DNA of 20,000 nucleotides from Dimargaris cristalligena (lineage: Eukaryota), in contig ML002226.1 in NCBI GenBank assembly GCA_003614675.1, positions 50,861-70,860 on the forward strand, written 5' to 3'. The position numbers were made by a program, and so were the translations under genes. A model generated the notes under the pieces. The model worked only from the letters and a program-made list of their open reading frames with translations, did not search any database and had not been told where the DNA came from. Positions within the stretch are counted from its first letter, which is position 1. Every line of letters begins with the position of its first letter. This document shows, in pieces, positions 5,602-19,191 of this stretch.

Positions 5602-7739
5602 ATGGACCAGAAAAAGTGGAATGCCCTTGACTCGACCAAAAAGGCCTTGTTGGTGCTCATCACCGAGTTCCTCGAGGCCAACCAGCTTCAGCTCACGGAC
5701 AGTCTCCAAAAATGCATTGCCAAGGAGTCCAAGGCCTCCGGCACCACCGACCTACTGAAGATCTACCGGGGTCACGTCGAAAGGTAGGCTATTCGATTCC
5801 TACTAGTCTAGATATCGGCGGGGAAAACGCGCTATTCTTTTGATTTAGCTCCTCCCCCTTCTCTCCATCTCCCCCGCTTACCGGGAAATTAGATAACCCA
5901 TAGCCAATCAAATCATTACACCCTCTTTAACTTAATGCCCTCCTAATTAATTATGCTTTTACTATTGATTCCATGCTTTACCTATTGGATTGTACTAGTC
6001 GCCACCAAAGTAAAGCCAGTGCACCCAAATCATCCTCCGACTCGAGCTCCAGTTCCAGCTCTGATTCTAGCTCCAGCTCAGACAGTAGTAGCAGCGGCTC
6101 CGATTCCAGCTCCAGCTCCAGCTCTAGCTCAGACTCCGATAGCGATGCCGAATCTGGGTCGGGCTCCAATAGTAGTTCGGATTCGGACTCGGATGCCGAG
6201 AAGAAGTCTGCTTCACTCAAGGCCATGGATGTTGATACCCCAGTAGTTGCCGCTGACACTAAGCAAGGCGGTGCTGCGAGCTCGTCCAGCTCCAGCTCTG
6301 ATTCCAGTTCTAGCTCCAGCTCCAGTTCTGATTCTAGCTCCAGCTCCAGTTCTGATTCTAGCTCGAGTTCCAGTTCCAGTTCCAGTTCCAGTTCCAGTTC
6401 CAGCTCCAGCAGCGACTCGGATTCCGACTCCAGTTCTGATGACGAGCCCGAAGCCGCCAAACCTAAAGTCGTCGCTATCGAGGTTGAACGCACCACAGTC
6501 ATCACTAAGGAAGCAGCTCGCCCCGACTCGAGCTTTAGTTCGAGCTCCAGCTCCAGCTCCGACTCAGAAGACGCCGATGATGAATCAGACGCACCTGCCG
6601 GTGCCAAAGCCGACTCGTCTTCATCTTCTGATTCGTCCGACTCCTCGGACTCTAGCTCTGACGAGTCCGAGGCTGAGGAATCTAAGCCCGTAGCCACTAA
6701 GCCGAAATCTTCCGACTCCTCTTCGTCCTCTTCATCCTCTTCTGACTCAAGCTCCGATTCTTCTTCGTCGTCATCGTCTTCTTCTTCTGATTCGAGTTCC
6801 GACGAGTCCAGTACTGAGGTCTCGAAGCCCGCCGCTACCAAGCCCGAGTCTTCGTCTTCCTCCTCCGACTCCTCTTCCTCCGACTCCAGTTCTGACGAGG
6901 CTGAGACCCAAGATTCTAAGCCCACCACTACCAAGGCCGAGTCTTCGTCCTCGTCCTCTTCTTCATCTTCTTCCTCGGACTCCAGCTCCGACGAGGCTGA
7001 GACCCAAGATTCTAAACCCGCCGCCACTAAGTCCGAGTCTTCCTCTTCGGATTCCAGTTCTGACGAGAACAAGGCTCGGGACTCTAAGCCCGTCGCCGCC
7101 AAGGCCGAGTCTTCATCGTCTTCCTCCTCTTCTTCTTCCTCGGGCTCCAGCTCTGACGAGGCCGATGCCAAGGATTCTAAACCCACCGCCACTAAGTCCT
7201 CTTCCTCGTCTTCATCCTCGTCCGAGAGCGAGGCTGAAAAGGCCGAGCCCAAGGCCGTTGCCGGTGAAAAGCGCAAGCAGCCCGATTCCGACAGTGCCAA
7301 GTCGGGCTTATCCTCGTCGAGCAATTCCGACGACAGTGACGATGATGATGAGGATGATACCGCCTCTCCTCCCCCCAAGAAGCGCCCCGTCTTTGGCCAA
7401 ACTTCCCAAACTCCCCAACCCCGGGGCAGCACTACTCCCCAGAGCCAGATCAGCCACGACGCCAAAACCAAGGCCGGAGGAGCCCGGACGACCCCGGGAC
7501 AGCGTTTCAGCCGCATTGACCCCAAAGACGTGGTCTTCCATGACCCCCGGCTGATGGATAACACCTTCACCAACAAGGGGGGCGCCGGCGGCTCTTATGG
7601 TGAGAAGGCCAATAATGATCTGATCGTAACCCGGGGCAAGCGTTTCACCGCCGAAAAGAACAAGAAGAAGCGTGGTGCGTACACCGGGGGCCGGATCGAC
7701 TTGGACTCGCATTCGATCAAGTTCTCCTACGACGAGTAA
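5602..7739 (+). CDS. SRP40: Nucleolar serine-rich phosphoprotein SRP40/Nopp140, ~640 aa. Exons 5602-5783 and 5999-7739
   Basis: LisH-like N-terminus (LLVLITEFLEANQL), alternating acidic poly-Ser and Lys/Pro/Ala blocks, and the SRP40 C-terminal domain (GQRFSRID...DNTF...YGEKANNDLIVTRGKRFTAEKNKKKRGAYTGGRID...SIKF). Phase-2 intron GTAGGC...TAG joins in frame. Confidence 0.94.
6030..7240 (+). repeat. Low-complexity coding repeats in SRP40: (TCCAGY)n, (TCY)n and ~110-130-nt modules encoding SSSDEAETQDSKP..TK.ES
   Basis: Direct repeats visible, e.g. GACGAGGCTGAGACCCAAGATTCTAA near 6894 and 6990. Confidence 0.85.
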
Positions 7740-13895: not shown

Positions 13896-14107
13896 TCTCT
13901 GGGCTAAGCTTCGATAACTGGCCGATAGAAAGTTATCCAGCGGGGGTTTTTCCCTGAGCAAGACAGGCTGTGGTCTCTTCACAACCTCGCTACACTTACG
14001 ACCAGCTTACCTTTAAGCACCCACCTCATTCGCTGGGCCATTGTCCCCTTCGTATTAACCATACCTAGACCCCTACTGATTTCTGATAAATTCGTATTGT
14101 TGGTACC

Positions 14108-15490
14108 ATGGCCTCCCTCACAGCCCGTCACTCTTCTCCCGATACTACCACAGTCCCACCTCCCGAGCGCCTACCCGGCCGAGACCTGCTCCTATGGCTC
14201 TTCCACCCGTCCCACAGTCTGGGCCGACAAATTGTCCACTACCTTGACAATTAGGAGCAATTCCGGCTGGCGGCAACCTGTCGGGCCCTCCATTCGCTGG
14301 TCAGCTCGCACTACGAACCCATCGTACCCGACGTCCCGAATCTGTCTCACGATTGTCGCCTGGCCCGGTTTATCCGGCGCTACCGTCCGCGGATTCGCTA
14401 CCTCTCTTTTGATTTAATGGAGAGCCAAGCCCCCGATTGGTTCGACGGGGTCCCGTCCCTCTTTAACCAGGCGGCCCAGCTGTATTGCGTTGAGTTTTTC
14501 CTTAACCAACTGGCCCGGTGGCCCAAGGCGGCCAGCTGCTTGGCCAAGCTGCCACCGCCCCTCCAGAAACTGACCGTTTTCCTGGCGGCGGCTAAGGAGT
14601 GTTCCGTCCAAGACTACCAAGCCCTTGCAAAGACCTATTTTTCGGACGCCCTTTACCGTCGACTAGGCTAAGTGCGGGTACTAAAACTCAGCACGTACTC
14701 GTCGACCATCGAAACTGACCATATTCTACAGTTTCTGACCCCCTTTTCCAATCTGCAGCAACTGGAGCTGGGTATTGCCGAGCCCGATGATCGTCTCTGC
14801 CGGGCTATAGCGCATCGGTTTCCCAATCTAACCCACCTGTCCCTCAATGCCGGGCCGTGGAATATTAGTTTGCTGTTTGGCCCCCATCCGCCCATTTTCC
14901 ATCAGTTAGTATCCCTTCAACTGAGTTTTAGTCACGATCCCCACCAGTTTGAAGCCCTGTAGAGCGTAGTGACCACTGACTACTCCCATCTAACCCAGTT
15001 TGCCGTCCATTTCTCCATGAGCCATGATCCACCCACTCTGCACCAAGTGCTGCCCCTGTGGCAATTCTTCAACCAGCCGTGGTCTAAAATCACCTCGTTA
15101 ACCCTGTCCTGCAGTTCCCCACCCGATGGCGATATGCTCCCCGAAATAAGCTCAAGCATCGTTGCAAATTTCCCGGAACCCCGGGATCTATCACTGCTCT
15201 CTTTTGCTACCCCGGCCTCGACGTATTCGTCCATTCTATCCCAATGCTCCAAATTAGAATCGCTGATGGTAGAGGAATGCGTTTCCACCACCTTCAACGA
15301 ACTGCGCCAGCTCGATTTCTATAATGCTAACCTGTCTTTGCTGAGTTTGGATGGGCCTATATGTGACTGGGAATCCTTGGCCACCGTTATATCCCGGCTG
15401 CCCAATCTACAAGGGCTGCATGGGGATATGGTGCCGGTTCCCCTCCGACCGCAGTTCAGAATGCAGTACCCGCACATTCAACCCACGTAA
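14108..15490 (+). pseudogene. F-box/LRR (RNI-like) protein frame of 460 codons with three in-frame stops (TAG 14252, TAA 14669, TAG 14960); pseudogene or recoded gene
   Basis: One frame from GTACC-ATG links the ORF-track pieces 14417-14671, 14672-14962 and 14969-15490. F-box-like IVHYLDN*EQFRLAATCRALHSLV plus LRR-like FSNLQQLEL, FPNLTHLSL, CSKLESLMV, LPNLQGL. No frameshift, and no intron removes the stops. Confidence 0.72.
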
Positions 15491-15860
15491 TGATGGACTA
15501 CTATATCCTTTCTCATAGATTTTTGTAAATTGTATAAATTCTGAGCTATTTAGTGTACTTGGGTATTTGTGCCCATAATCATTTCCAAGCATAATGAGTT
15601 AATAAATCGACTAATACGTGTGGTTATCATTCTATTATTTTATCGCCATAATGTTCTTACTGGCGACCCTGGGGTCTAAGAATTAAGGTCGGGAAACTCG
15701 GGAAATTGAAGGGCATATCGTATAGCGTAAAGTAGGGATCATGTGCCGATAATCCCCAATGTGGTCCCATCACTGGCTTCCCCCAAAATTCATGCTAGAG
15801 AGAATATAATGGTGAAGTAAGCGGAGGGGACTGAGGGCTTACACCAACCATTCTATCATT

Positions 15861-16010
15861 GAGTGGAATACTGATGAGCCCAAAAAGGGCGTTGCCGCTT
15901 TTTGGCTGCGAAAGCTACACCCAACAAAGTCAATGGTAGAGTATATTATAGCTGGTCTTAATATATCCCAACTGTGGCCCATTGAACATGTCTAGCTCAT
16001 TTCAATTCTA
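15861..16010 (+). ncRNA. Candidate type I hammerhead-ribozyme-like structure
   Basis: Core CTGATGA-G...C-GAAA flanking a CCAAAAAG/CTTTTTGG stem; AGCTA can pair with TAGCT followed by C15998; stem I is weak and needs one extra nucleotide. Confidence 0.4.
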
Positions 16011-16063
16011 ATTCTCATTTAACTTATTCCATCCGCACTTCTGTCAAATATACTATACCAGCC

Positions 16064-16937
16064 ATGTTCGTGGACAACGAAAAGGTAATGGAGACGTACC
16101 AGTATTATCGGATGACCGTTACCCATTCCCCTCATTCCAGCTTCCATCCTTTTACCAATTTACCTATGAAGGTCTACTTAACAAACCAGGGATGCTAACG
16201 AATATTCCGACCGCCACATTTCATTGTTACCATGCCTATTACCTGCTCGATTCCGGTATGACCATAATATATAGTTTCTTACCGAATTAGCCGCGTACTT
16301 CCGCAAGGCCTCAAAAAGCGGGTCCGTTACCGTGACCTCCAAGCGATGTAAGTACCGTGCCCTTTGTGAAATAGAAATATATGTATTATCACGGGACATT
16401 ACCTAATGAAAGGCTTTGAATCTACCCGAAGACTCGTCTGGTAATAGATTCATTGGGTCAGTACAACTAACCATAAACTCCGATACCTTGTGTACGGTAG
16501 ATGACGCGGCCACCCGCCACCAAAGCCCGGCCCAGCCCATTGTGGAGACCAACCTTACTATGGACCCCCACCCTACTTCCAGTGAGCCCGGCAACCCCCA
16601 GCATGACTACTTAGTACGCGCCGCATTTAAAGGAGACAAAATAAGCACTGTGGTAAGTAATCTCGCGCGATTGGGGAATTCGCCCTACAAGTGTAGCCGT
16701 ATAAGTGGGTAGTTATTATATACATTCAAGCATGTTCAACTTAAAACATAGCCATTTAACACCGTTAAATTATGATCTACTAAATGCCGCCCATGTCTTT
16801 AGGTCACGCCTGAAGATTACACGCAATTCCAGTCGGGATACCTTTATTTACTAAAGCTACAAATGAAGGCCCTTAAAGTCCCCAAGAAACGGAAGGCAAC
16901 TGGTTCCGCCAAGAAATCTGGTTCATCAAAAAAGTAA
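16064..16937 (+). CDS. SRP14: Signal recognition particle 14 kDa subunit, 126 aa. Exons 16064-16084, 16275-16347, 16501-16652, 16803-16937
   Basis: Spliced protein MFVDNEKFLTELAAYF...GSVTVTSKRY...YLVRA...KISTVV...FQSGY..LLKLQMKALK..KKRK fits SRP14; three GT-AG introns in consistent phase. Confidence 0.92.
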
Positions 16938-17328
16938 AATGACCTTGAGGTCTCTATTCCGCCCTTGCGTATACTGCCCCTTCCCCACCCACCTCATACT
17001 ATATTGACCTACTCATCCCGTTCAATGTACAGCATTAACTTATCATTCGTTCCGATTTCCTAAGCTACTCTGATGTAGATCCGCCAGCTTCTACCATATC
17101 AATGTCACATTAAAGACTCTTACCAACTATTTTATATACATTGGAATAATGTACAAATATTTAAAATTACCCCCTAGAGTGCCAATGAACGTAGATGGAT
17201 TAGACTGCATCTAACTAGTGGGCTAGATGAGAGCTGTTGGAGCAAAGCGATTATATTACTCAATCTTCCATCCTCTAGCAGTATGTTTCATCGGAGGCTA
17301 GATCCTTATGGTCGAGTATTCTAAGCGT

Positions 17329-17351
17329 TCTCTCTCTCTCTCTCTCTCTCT
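17329..17351. repeat. (TC)n microsatellite, about 11 units
   Basis: Directly visible. Confidence 0.9.
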
Positions 17352-18177
17352 ATCCATTATATCGTAAATAATATCGCAATAATCATAAAATGGGGACAAA
17401 GATAGCATTGTGAGGAAACACAGTAGAAATGCCCATTATACCTTTCTGCTAGCACAATCTACTCTTGGCAAACTGGAGTTAGAACCATCCGAATGGTGAT
17501 CCTACAGGACCAATAAACTGATCCAGGACTCTATCTTATCTGAGCTTGTAGAGGAGTAGTAGTCGACATTAGAAGGTCGATTAGTCTAACTTGTGGTTGA
17601 AGGGGGCCTACTCCCAAACCACATCTCTCCCACCCAAATTATAGAAATTGAATATGCAGAGTACTTTATTAATGGGCTAATCCAAACGCATATTTGCAGA
17701 CTGATACTAATATAATATAATCCTCTCCAATGAGCTCTCGCAATGTTTGGGGGCCATAAGCTCTTCACTGTTAAATACCATATCTCATGTTTAGTAAGGC
17801 TATTCAGCCCATAAACCATCGAGTGAATTACATGATCCCCAGCTTGAATATTAAATTTTAGATTAAGACCACCTTTATTTCCTAAGCAGAATGAGTGATT
17901 AAGTAAGACAATTAACCCGCAAACCCACCTTAAAAACAGGGAAGTAAAATTATACACAAAACTCGCCTTTAAGGTATTTGCCCTTTTATTGTATACTATT
18001 AGATAGTCTAAAGCGGAACCCTTGCATTTGACGAACGCTAGATAACTGTTTATCGACCGATTAAAGACCCCTTAATCTCAAATAGGGCCCATTTACCAAT
18101 AAACGACACTCATCTGACCATGCTTCCAAAAGCGCTAACGCTATCTACAAGGAAATTACTTATACTCATTCCAATGG

Positions 18178-19191
18178 TTACTGAGGGCATGGGGGTGCCG
18201 GTATGAGGTTGAGCACCCGTTGGAGGTCACCGACGGGAGTTTGCCAGCGATCTTCGTACATTATATTCATATAGAATTTAGACCGACTCCCGTTTTGAAT
18301 GGCCCACGGGATCAGCACTCGGCGCAGATGGGCCCGTTCGGCGGGATCGGAGATGCCTGGGCCCACAATCGAGCTGGCCAAAGTCATGGGGAGACCTGTC
18401 TGCATCCACTCGAACCATTTGACCGCGGTTTCCGAGGCCACTGAAATGCTAGTGATCCCGGTTAGGACATGGATAAAATCATGGGTCTCGCGATAGCGTT
18501 GAAGCACATAGGCCAATTCGGGATCGGACACGTATTGGACCTAGGGATTGTCATGGGGAGGGATAGTGTTATTGAATTTATCTGTGTGGATATCCGTGGA
18601 TCAATTGCTCAAAAAGCCGTTTCCGCTGTATTGACTGGTGTCGCAGCCAAGAACATAACTGGATGCGGCATACAGAAGTAAAGCTAGTGGATACACAACT
18701 GATATTTACCTCTAGGCGTGATTCGGGCTGAAATCCATGGTGGTCCATGAATCGGACATACTCCCGACCAAACGTCCGATCCGGCAGGGTGCGAAACCAG
18801 TCGTAGTCCATTGTTTGGGAGTTGAGTCGCGGCTGTTCCCGCAAGATACGTCGACCCTCAGCTGAACCGAGCATTTTGTGGTGCATGGACCGCGCAGCCC
18901 GCCCGCCTGTGAGTTCACCCAGCGTGGCGACCATGTCTTTTTCCAAAAGAGTAAAATAGCGGGTAGGGTGGAGTACACCAGTAAGCCTCAAAGTATATCC
19001 CTGTTGGTCGGTGATTCGCAGGTGGAGAAGGCTTCTTTGAAGCAGACCCCTTGGGGAGGTGGTGGGGGCCGAGTGGCTAGCTAGTGAATAAACTTACCAG
19101 CACGGGCAGGGTTGTAGGCGGCGGTAAATGCGGACCCCACGGTTAGAATGGCTCTTTGGAGGCACGAAATGGAGTGGGCAGCTTTAGACAT
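18178..19191 (-). CDS. COQ4: Ubiquinone biosynthesis protein COQ4, 227 aa. Exons 19191-19098, 18936-18710, 18540-18178
   Basis: LQRAILTVGSA...NPARADMVATLGE, EGRRILREQPR, TFGREY, YVLQRYRETHDFIH (HDxxH motif) and ETAVKWFEWMQTGLPM. Exon phases consistent; start CCGCC-ATG. Confidence 0.94.

Follow-up and report, generated by a model that had tools for sequence, protein, structure and literature searches.

The interrupted F-box/LRR frame of Dimargaris cristalligena described here is, with a probability of roughly 0.8, an ordinary young unitary pseudogene that was recently inactivated. Nonsense lesions are present in the genomic DNA, and the relatives of the gene carry sense codons at the same sites. 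The analysis covered a window of 20,000 nt, that is, the whole stretch of contig ML002226.1 under study. A preliminary description of this DNA had listed five options for the locus, of which an ordinary young pseudogene was the last; it turned out to be the one that fits best.

A full-length frame with three internal stops

On translation the frame comprises 462 positions: 457 sense codons, three internal stops and the TAA-TGA end. The positions of its features are given in Table 1. Translation confirmed the three stops and the tandem end as they had been described and gave no internal TGA. As the closest in-frame stop on the 5′ side is a TAA at 14087, we take the ATG at 14108 to open the frame. 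The remaining five frames over the same 1386 nt carry 16–21 stops each, and this frame is therefore clearly coding, either now or until recently.

Table 1. Features of the interrupted F-box/LRR locus and of the public gene models that cover it (positions in the window).
Feature	Position	Strand	Remarks
Whole interrupted frame	14108..15493	+	Member of the Dimargaris cristalligena-restricted F-box/LRR family
F-box-like region, residues 40–69	14225..14314	+	Pfam F-box 20.2 bits, E=5.4e-4; F-box-like 19.9 bits
Premature stop 1, TAG, residue 49	14252..14254	+	Context gacaatTAGgagcaa; inside F-box-like region
LRR solenoid, residues ~98–441	14399..15430	+	Alternating strand/helix repeats across stops 2 and 3
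Premature stop 2, TAA, residue 188	14669..14671	+	Context ctaggcTAAgtgcgg; in family-conserved L-x-R-I-R motif
Premature stop 3, TAG, residue 285	14960..14962	+	Context gccctgTAGagcgta
Natural gene end, TAA 15488 and TGA 15491	15488..15493	+	3 codons past conserved C-terminal Y-P-H-I motif
Annotation artefact, 24-nt GT..AG "intron" skipping stop 1	14234..14257	+	One deposited model
Annotation artefact, 21-nt GT..AG "intron" skipping stop 1	14234..14254	+	Other deposited model
Annotation artefact, 15-nt GT..AG "intron" skipping stop 2	14658..14672	+	One deposited model

Full-length paralogs aligned to the locus by tblastn in single HSPs that cross all three stops. Residues 7–445 of P0004 correspond to 14204–15478, and residues 3–460 of P0007 to 14144–15481. 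Thus, the locus contains no frameshift, and the earlier statement that it is free of indels stands. The four segments between the stops fall on contiguous stretches of the family HMM (2–52, 54–198, 200–295 and 299–463), and every stop stands where the family profile has a single sense position.

Several properties of the stops that had been put forward as signals say little. A stop set consisting of TAR only is expected by chance with a probability of 0.45–0.49 (about 0.47), as calculated from the locus's own codons, and was given no weight. The same applies to the observation that each stop is one C-to-T change from CAG/CAA in a CpA context, which holds for every TAG and TAA by definition. 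The tandem TAA-TGA at the end of the gene is trivial.

The stops are real in the DNA. Contigs of four DNA runs (two samples, two studies), some of which may themselves be the source of the window, had no other letters and no gaps over 13900–15700 (1801 nt); these were contigs, not raw reads, and contigs can lose a second, intact allele. One report suggests that Dimargaris cristalligena is non-haploid (PMC9866270). In both deposited assemblies the gene models work around the same stops.

The locus belongs to a species-restricted family

An exhaustive HMMER search of 1.84 billion representative proteins returned 27 family matches, all of them from Dimargaris cristalligena. A word-indexed protein search yielded no match at E ≤ 0.001 when the single sequence was the query, and two proteins only when the query was an alignment. 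When clustered at 50% identity, the family falls into 25 clusters or more. Its apparently uninterrupted paralogs are 405–534 aa long and 22–39% identical to the locus in a 16-row alignment (up to 42–43% over local matches). Tandem pairs with adjacent locus tags are found (P0023/P0024 and P0012/P0035). About 12 of the 25 other clusters are represented by truncated or discordant models only, which fits birth-and-death turnover. The hallmarks of the family are a G-L-x-L-L-x-W-L-F-H-P motif ahead of the F-box and a Y-P-H-I motif near the C-terminus. UniRef names many of the paralogs "F-box domain-containing protein", and a literature search found no paper naming both "Dimargaris cristalligena" and "F-box". 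Judged by these sequence comparisons, the family is fast-evolving, FBXL-like and confined to Dimargaris cristalligena.

The F-box itself is only marginally recognizable in the sequence. Its Pfam F-box score lies just below the gathering score of 20.5, the F-box-like score lies below the corresponding 24.3, and among 16 family members one reaches a Pfam F-box E-value below 0.01. In an AlphaFold2 model of the read-through product the region is helical (H37–45, H49–56, H59–69), with low pLDDT values there of 55–66. As a whole the model forms a single coherent solenoid (pLDDT 81.2, pTM 0.78) in which 14 strands alternate with helices, as is typical of the C-terminal LRR solenoid of FBXL proteins. 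Foldseek matched it to COI1 (9e-8), MAX2 (2e-7), FBXL17 (6e-7), FBXL2 (1e-6) and TIR1 (1e-6), and further to D3 (with MAX2), SKP2 and NLRC4. Compared with PDB sequences, the family profile matched TIR1 (2.9e-11), FBXL2 (6.4e-6), FBXL17 (1.4e-5) and COI1 (4e-4). The F-box/LRR identity originally proposed for the frame is borne out by the solenoid model and by these matches, with the Pfam F-box marginally below threshold.

The FBXL receptors TIR1, COI1, MAX2/D3, FBXL2, FBXL17 and SKP2 likewise have N-terminal F-box-like helices followed by a long LRR solenoid. In contrast to them, the Dimargaris family is found in a single species and has hallmark motifs of its own, the copy examined carries three stops, and its model is only 11–15% identical to the receptors. 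On the basis of fold and family, the gene in its intact ancestral state most likely encoded an FBXL-type substrate receptor of an SCF ubiquitin ligase. Its N-terminal F-box would have docked on Skp1, and its horseshoe of about 13 LRRs would have bound substrates. The expansion of this FBXL-like family is uncharacterised and is seen only in this mycoparasite, and it could bear on the biology of the fungus.

Paralogs carry sense residues at the stop sites

The sites of stops 1, 2 and 3 are occupied by a sense residue in 14/14, 15/15 and 15/15 aligned paralogs, respectively. At site 1 we found R in five, Q in three, E in two, and L, H, A and W in one paralog each, besides one gap. Site 2 has R in nine, Q in two, and K, L, G and H once each, while site 3 has G in five, A in three, R in three, and N, S, T and Q once each. 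The commonest residues are thus R, R and G. In the locus's own clade of four the residues are L/Q/Q/E, R/R/R/K and G/G/N/G at the three sites. It had been argued that Gln fits each site, but in the paralog alignment it is a minority residue at all of them (3/14, 2/15 and 1/15).

The breaks are young

In leave-one-out scoring against the family HMM the locus ranked best of 13 (406 bits, 0.88 bits/aa versus 0.44–0.78 for the others), a rank that is inflated, since the locus served as query when the family was assembled and the family is hence centred on it. Two less biased measures are the strongly conserved columns, of which the locus matches 56 of 66 (rank 2 of 16), and the tree, in which its root-to-tip path is the shortest in the clade (0.74 versus 0.89–1.26). 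By both of them the locus is normal and not eroded. The breaks are young, since outside them the sequence resembles the family no less than the intact paralogs do. The lack of decay past the stops, as seen by HMM score, conserved columns and tree, was counted against the pseudogene reading.

Random substitutions create a stop in this gene in 3.2% of cases, and in 5.7% when C>T/G>A changes only are considered. Three stops therefore imply about 34–274 (19–155) neutral substitutions, and the family score drops by about 0.9 bit with every random substitution. For three or more stops without any frameshift the joint probability is 0.0002–0.14, depending on the mutation bias and on the indel:substitution ratio, for which values of 0.03–0.1 were assumed. 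We regard three stops without a frameshift as mildly unusual.

A unitary pseudogene would have arisen here by three independent point mutations that changed sense codons to TAG, TAA and TAG. With the standard code, translation would stop after 48 residues, inside the F-box, and no functional protein would therefore be made. For plants and mammals there is good documentation of lineage-specific F-box families with many pseudogenes (PMC3030570, PMC3984280). Like the lineage-specific expansions that such reports describe in plants, nematodes and mammals under the terms "genomic drift" and birth-and-death, the Dimargaris family is large, fast-diverging and species-restricted, and it resembles the pseudogene-rich ones among them in its tandem pairs, its many truncated or discordant models and at least one nonsense-bearing copy. 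Such a copy is expected biology in an F-box family with fast turnover.

Genetic code, stop context and base composition

The SRP40 gene ends in a TAA four codons after the SRP40_C domain (76/76), and the Coq4 gene in a TAA four codons after profile position 221/221. The window's long conserved ORFs lack any internal TAR. Because these conserved neighbours terminate at TAA directly past their C-terminal domains, a genome-wide change of the code is excluded, as had been concluded before. TAA and TAG are read as Gln (NCBI table 6) in ciliates, some green algae and diplomonads. Read in this way, the Dimargaris frame would be one uninterrupted 460-aa ORF ending at the TGA. Unlike the organisms that use table 6, however, Dimargaris uses TAA as a true terminator, and the residue typical of the family at the stop sites is not Gln.

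The base following stops 1, 2 and 3 is G, G and A, respectively, and a purine after the stop is a context of efficient termination. None of the three is followed by a CAR-YYA-type motif. No local RNA structure or hairpin was detected at the three stops, the folding z-scores around them being unremarkable (−1.08, −0.52 and +0.31). The number of tRNA genes in the window is zero.

At the locus TpA/ApT is 0.81, (CpA+TpG)/(ApC+GpT) is 1.18, CpG o/e is 0.85, TpA o/e is 0.87 and the GC content is 55%, values that resemble those of the neighbouring genes. The usual thresholds for RIP are TpA/ApT above 0.89 and (CpA+TpG)/(ApC+GpT) below 1.03, and the locus lies on the other side of both. A duplicated partner was not found either: the window holds no second copy, and the nearest paralog is 39–43% identical at the protein level. 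The RIP-like mutation suggested in the preliminary description consequently finds no support at the locus.

Other explanations

Could the gene be alive, "locked" by TAR codons that are corrected or bypassed only under certain conditions, through suppression or stage-specific editing of the mRNA? We consider this very unlikely. If true, it would be the first restorative stop-codon correction outside Ascomycota, and the reach of restorative recoding would then include early-diverging fungi. Each of the two routes, taken singly, is highly improbable. Editing would correct the transcript during a particular stage of the life cycle, by changing UAG to UGG or, through U-to-C changes, to Gln. A full-length, frameshift-free, uneroded and slow-evolving frame is what a restoratively edited "pseudogene" looks like, and TAG makes up two of the three stops. 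U-to-C mRNA editing is not known from fungal nuclei. The frame has no hairpin signal around its stops, and Trp occupies the three sites in 1/14, 0/15 and 0/15 paralogs. Restorative A-to-I editing of UAG to UGG has been described for Sordariomycetes and demonstrated with RNA (PMC10776026). As reported there, the edited "pseudogenes" in Fusarium graminearum and in Neurospora crassa are likewise intact and frameshift-free with in-frame TAG, and the Fusarium TAG stops are often derived from non-TGG codons. That system corrects UAG and is described as one of Sordariomycetes/Pezizomycotina, whereas Dimargaris is a Zoopagomycota fungus, is known here from DNA alone and has a TAA as its middle stop. 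A single A-to-I change at 14669 leaves a stop, and TAA served in the Fusarium study as a deliberately uneditable allele (PMC10776026). Gene-specific readthrough or suppression, in which the TAR codons would be decoded, for example as Gln by a near-cognate or suppressor tRNA, to give the full 460-aa protein, would agree with a frame that is intact up to its natural, family-typical end, with a product modelled as one coherent solenoid and with stops that are all TAR. The last point, however, is a near-even chance event, and Gln is rare at the sites. TAA terminates the conserved neighbours where expected, the window holds no tRNA gene, and three leaky stops in series would multiply to a negligible yield. 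Editing and readthrough are both disfavoured because one stop is TAA, purines follow the stops, and local RNA structure is lacking.

A C-to-T-biased process, either RIP-like or a deamination of methylated cytosines, would leave the locus a pseudogene but give its stops a different origin, and is unlikely. Such a process makes stops from CAR and TGG efficiently and without indels, which suits a frame that has three stops, lacks a frameshift and is not visibly eroded, and its higher stop yield raises the joint probability to as much as 0.14. Against it speak the negative locus-wide indices and the lack of a duplicate partner. In addition, none of the clade residues at sites 2 and 3 leads to TAA or TAG by one C>T/G>A change, and at conserved columns the mismatches are not clearly enriched in C>T (R>H, P>S and L>F, as opposed to L>S, L>P and C>F). 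According to a kingdom-wide survey (PMC12543289), Neurospora-type RIP is likely limited to a few ascomycetes. If true, it would be a weaker variant of the unusual reading above: the genes of a zoopagomycete would be subject to a RIP-like C-to-T process that generates stops. It is hardly credible that the stops lie within very short real introns and that the gene is intact. Two independent annotation pipelines did set GT..AG intervals over stops 1 and 2, but the codons skipped are family-conserved (the F-box stretch I/V-x-x-L-x-N and the motif L-G-x-I/V-R), and in the family HMM each of them corresponds to a single match position. The sole intron definable in the window, that of Coq4 (18709–18541, minus strand; GTAAAT...CCCTAG), is 169 nt long. 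In-frame GT..AG candidates passed a GTRNG donor filter in 0 of 26 cases at stop 1, 0 of 53 at stop 2 and 2 of 74 at stop 3, although this filter would also miss GTAAAT, the one real donor in the window; the two that passed would remove the entire best-conserved segment of 96 codons. The argument against introns therefore rests on the conservation of the skipped codons. The chance of a sequencing or assembly error, or of acquisition from a donor in which TAR encodes Gln, is negligible. One public Dimargaris cristalligena assembly was made from amplified single cells (PMC6784888), but the contigs of four runs from two studies are identical and both deposited assemblies have the same stops, so that the assembly error considered earlier can be dismissed. 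We reject the proposed TAR=Gln donor, since the gene is part of a family whose matches (27/27) come solely from this species; within it the locus is placed among native paralogs, in a clade supported at 96/93.

Public gene models of the locus

The probable young pseudogene is represented in the public databases by two or three "hypothetical proteins", the deposited models splitting the locus into pieces of 179, 272 and 157 aa. The "introns" placed over stop 1 delete family-conserved F-box codons. Neither model manages to skip stop 3: at this codon one of them terminates, and the other begins a new "gene" at 15017. Both public annotations mask a probable pseudogene by introns of 15–24 nt, which leads to inflated gene counts and to truncated or chimeric proteins in the databases.

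An F-box/LRR frame interrupted by three stop codons

The window comes from the nuclear genome of Dimargaris cristalligena, a mycoparasitic zoopagomycete, and the deposited protein models of the locus are named for the same organism. Translation confirmed the preliminary description of the frame at 14108–15493 exactly, with its TAG, TAA and TAG (stops 1–3) and its TAA-TGA end. The other five frames of this interval contain 16–21 stops apiece. As single tblastn HSPs of full-length paralogs span all three stops, the locus is without a frameshift. The four segments delimited by the stops score 38, 93, 106 and 121 bits against a family HMM built from 12 full-length paralogs, and map to its positions 2–52, 54–198, 200–295 and 299–463. 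Each stop stands in place of one sense codon.

Coordinates of the features described in the text
Feature	Position	Strand	Details
Start ATG	14108	+	in-frame TAA upstream at 14087
Stop 1, TAG	14252	+	translation
Stop 2, TAA	14669	+	translation
Stop 3, TAG	14960	+	translation
End of frame, TAA then TGA	15488	+	translation
Deposited model 1		+	179 aa; skips 14234–14257 (24 nt), ends at stop 2
Deposited model 2		+	272 aa; skips 14234–14254 (21 nt) and 14658–14672 (15 nt), ends at stop 3
Deposited model 3	begins at ATG 15017	+	157 aa
SRP40-like gene	5931–7739	+	602-aa ORF, SRP40_C domain at end
Coq4 intron	18541–18709	-	169 nt, GTAAAT...CCCTAG, between Pfam profile positions about 107 and 108

Four DNA runs, from two samples and two studies, have contigs that match the window over 13900–15700 with 0 differing letters and 0 gaps; some of these runs may themselves be the source of the window. 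The same positions are treated as stops in two deposited, independently annotated assemblies (locus-tag prefixes BJ085DRAFT and H4R33). An assembly error is thus a very unlikely origin of the stops. According to PMC9866270, D. cristalligena has been suggested to be non-haploid, and with this caveat a second, intact allele of the locus would be invisible in the contigs.

To pass over in-frame stops, both public annotations use GT..AG “introns” that are 24, 21 and 15 nt long. These would remove residues that are conserved in the family alignment, and they are far shorter than the Coq4 intron, the only one in the window definable by domain continuity. Short real introns over the stops were therefore rejected, and the “introns” of the deposited models are annotation artefacts. 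One pseudogene is in this way split into three hypothetical proteins. Models at other family loci are also discordant between the annotations (for example 198 vs 255, 167+106 vs 293, and 414 vs 474 aa), so the stop-skipping artefact may be widespread.

A species-restricted FBXL-like family

Searched exhaustively with HMMER, 1.84 billion representative proteins gave 27 matches at E ≤ 0.001, every one from D. cristalligena: two deposited fragments of the locus and 25 paralogs that are 22–43% identical to it. Pfam finds a borderline F-box at residues 40–69 (20.2 bits, cut-off 20.5) and weak LRR matches. The AlphaFold2 model, made from a 16-member family alignment (mean pLDDT 81.2), has an N-terminal helical region followed by a single continuous strand/helix LRR solenoid. 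Its Foldseek matches include COI1, MAX2/D3, FBXL17, FBXL2, TIR1 and SKP2 as well as NLR-type LRRs, and by sequence the family profile matches TIR1 (2.9e-11), FBXL2 (6.4e-6), FBXL17 (1.4e-5) and COI1 (4e-4). Taken together, these matches identify an FBXL-like F-box/LRR family, whose members are presumably SCF substrate receptors with a predicted binding to Skp1. The motif G-L-x-L-L-x-W-L-F-H-P precedes the F-box in this uncharacterised family; T-D-Y-P-H-L, Q-P-W-P-x-I-T-S-L, R-L-P-N-L-Q and a C-terminal Y-P-H-I are also conserved. Certain members lie in adjacent loci with consecutive locus tags.

Origin of the stop codons

We consider the locus to be a young, ordinary pseudogene of this family, mis-modelled in the public annotations (probability about 0.8). 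It is not eroded, which is slightly odd: it agrees with 56 of the 66 columns in which the other members show 70% or more conservation (rank 2 of 16), and its path in the tree is the shortest of its clade (0.74 vs 0.89–1.26 substitutions per site). It also has the top score in a leave-one-out family HMM, a rank that is inflated because the locus was the query used to collect the family. Only 3.2% of random substitutions in the locus create a stop, and the family score falls by about 0.9 bit with every random substitution. Under a simple Poisson model, three stops imply 34–274 neutral substitutions. The joint probability of at least three stops and no frameshift is 0.0002–0.14, varying with the indel:substitution ratio (assumed 0.03–0.1) and GC-to-AT bias, for a locus chosen post hoc in a genome scan. 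We regard this as a mild tension and no anomaly. About 12 of 25 other family clusters hold only truncated or discordant models, which suggests that many copies are decaying, enough for one such case by chance.

That the stops are instead corrected or decoded is very improbable. The preliminary description held that Gln fits each site, but in the alignment of 15 paralogs the share with Q is 3/14, 2/15 and 1/15 at sites 1, 2 and 3, where R (5), R (9) and G (5) are commonest. The well-supported clade of the locus itself has L/Q/Q/E, R/R/R/K and G/G/N/G. Gln is thus a possibility at site 1, with no support at the other two. The restriction to TAA and TAG is real, but since 76–79% of stop-creating substitutions in the locus, given its codon content, yield one of these, three of three are expected by chance with a probability of 0.45–0.49. 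Likewise, each stop is one C-to-T change from a Gln codon in a CpA context, but this holds for every TAA or TAG and is uninformative. The exclusion of a genome-wide code change stands, as SRP40 and Coq4 terminate with TAA four codons past their C-terminal Pfam domains. Restorative A-to-I editing in fungi is known as a correction of UAG to UGG in Sordariomycetes, and its authors had TAA serve as the uneditable control allele (PMC10776026); the locus differs in that its middle stop is TAA, and Trp is nearly missing from the paralogs at all three sites. Against readthrough, the bases after the stops are G, G and A, RNA structure around them is ordinary (z = −1.08, −0.52 and +0.31), and the window contains no tRNA gene. 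A RIP-like process, also proposed, could have made the stops by mutation, but the indices of the locus are negative (TpA/ApT 0.81, (CpA+TpG)/(ApC+GpT) 1.18) and, like its CpG o/e (0.85) and GC content (55%), close to those of neighbouring genes. No close duplicate of the locus was found, and by the conclusion of a recent kingdom-wide study Neurospora-type RIP is probably limited to a few ascomycetes (PMC12543289). Because the locus belongs to a native family and groups with it in the tree, the suggested foreign donor is excluded.

Neighbouring genes

The pseudogene lies among ordinary eukaryotic genes (ceramidase, SRP40, HIT protein, RanBP1-domain protein and Coq4). Downstream of it, 15500–18100 is AT-richer (GC 0.38–0.47), and ORFs of 100–161 aa in this region (16410–16712 on the plus and 17586–18071 on the minus strand) have no Pfam match. 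Opposite the SRP40-like gene, a 538-aa open frame at 5978–7594, also without a Pfam match, is probably a by-product of that gene's low-complexity, skewed composition (TpA o/e 0.53–0.58) and not a second gene.
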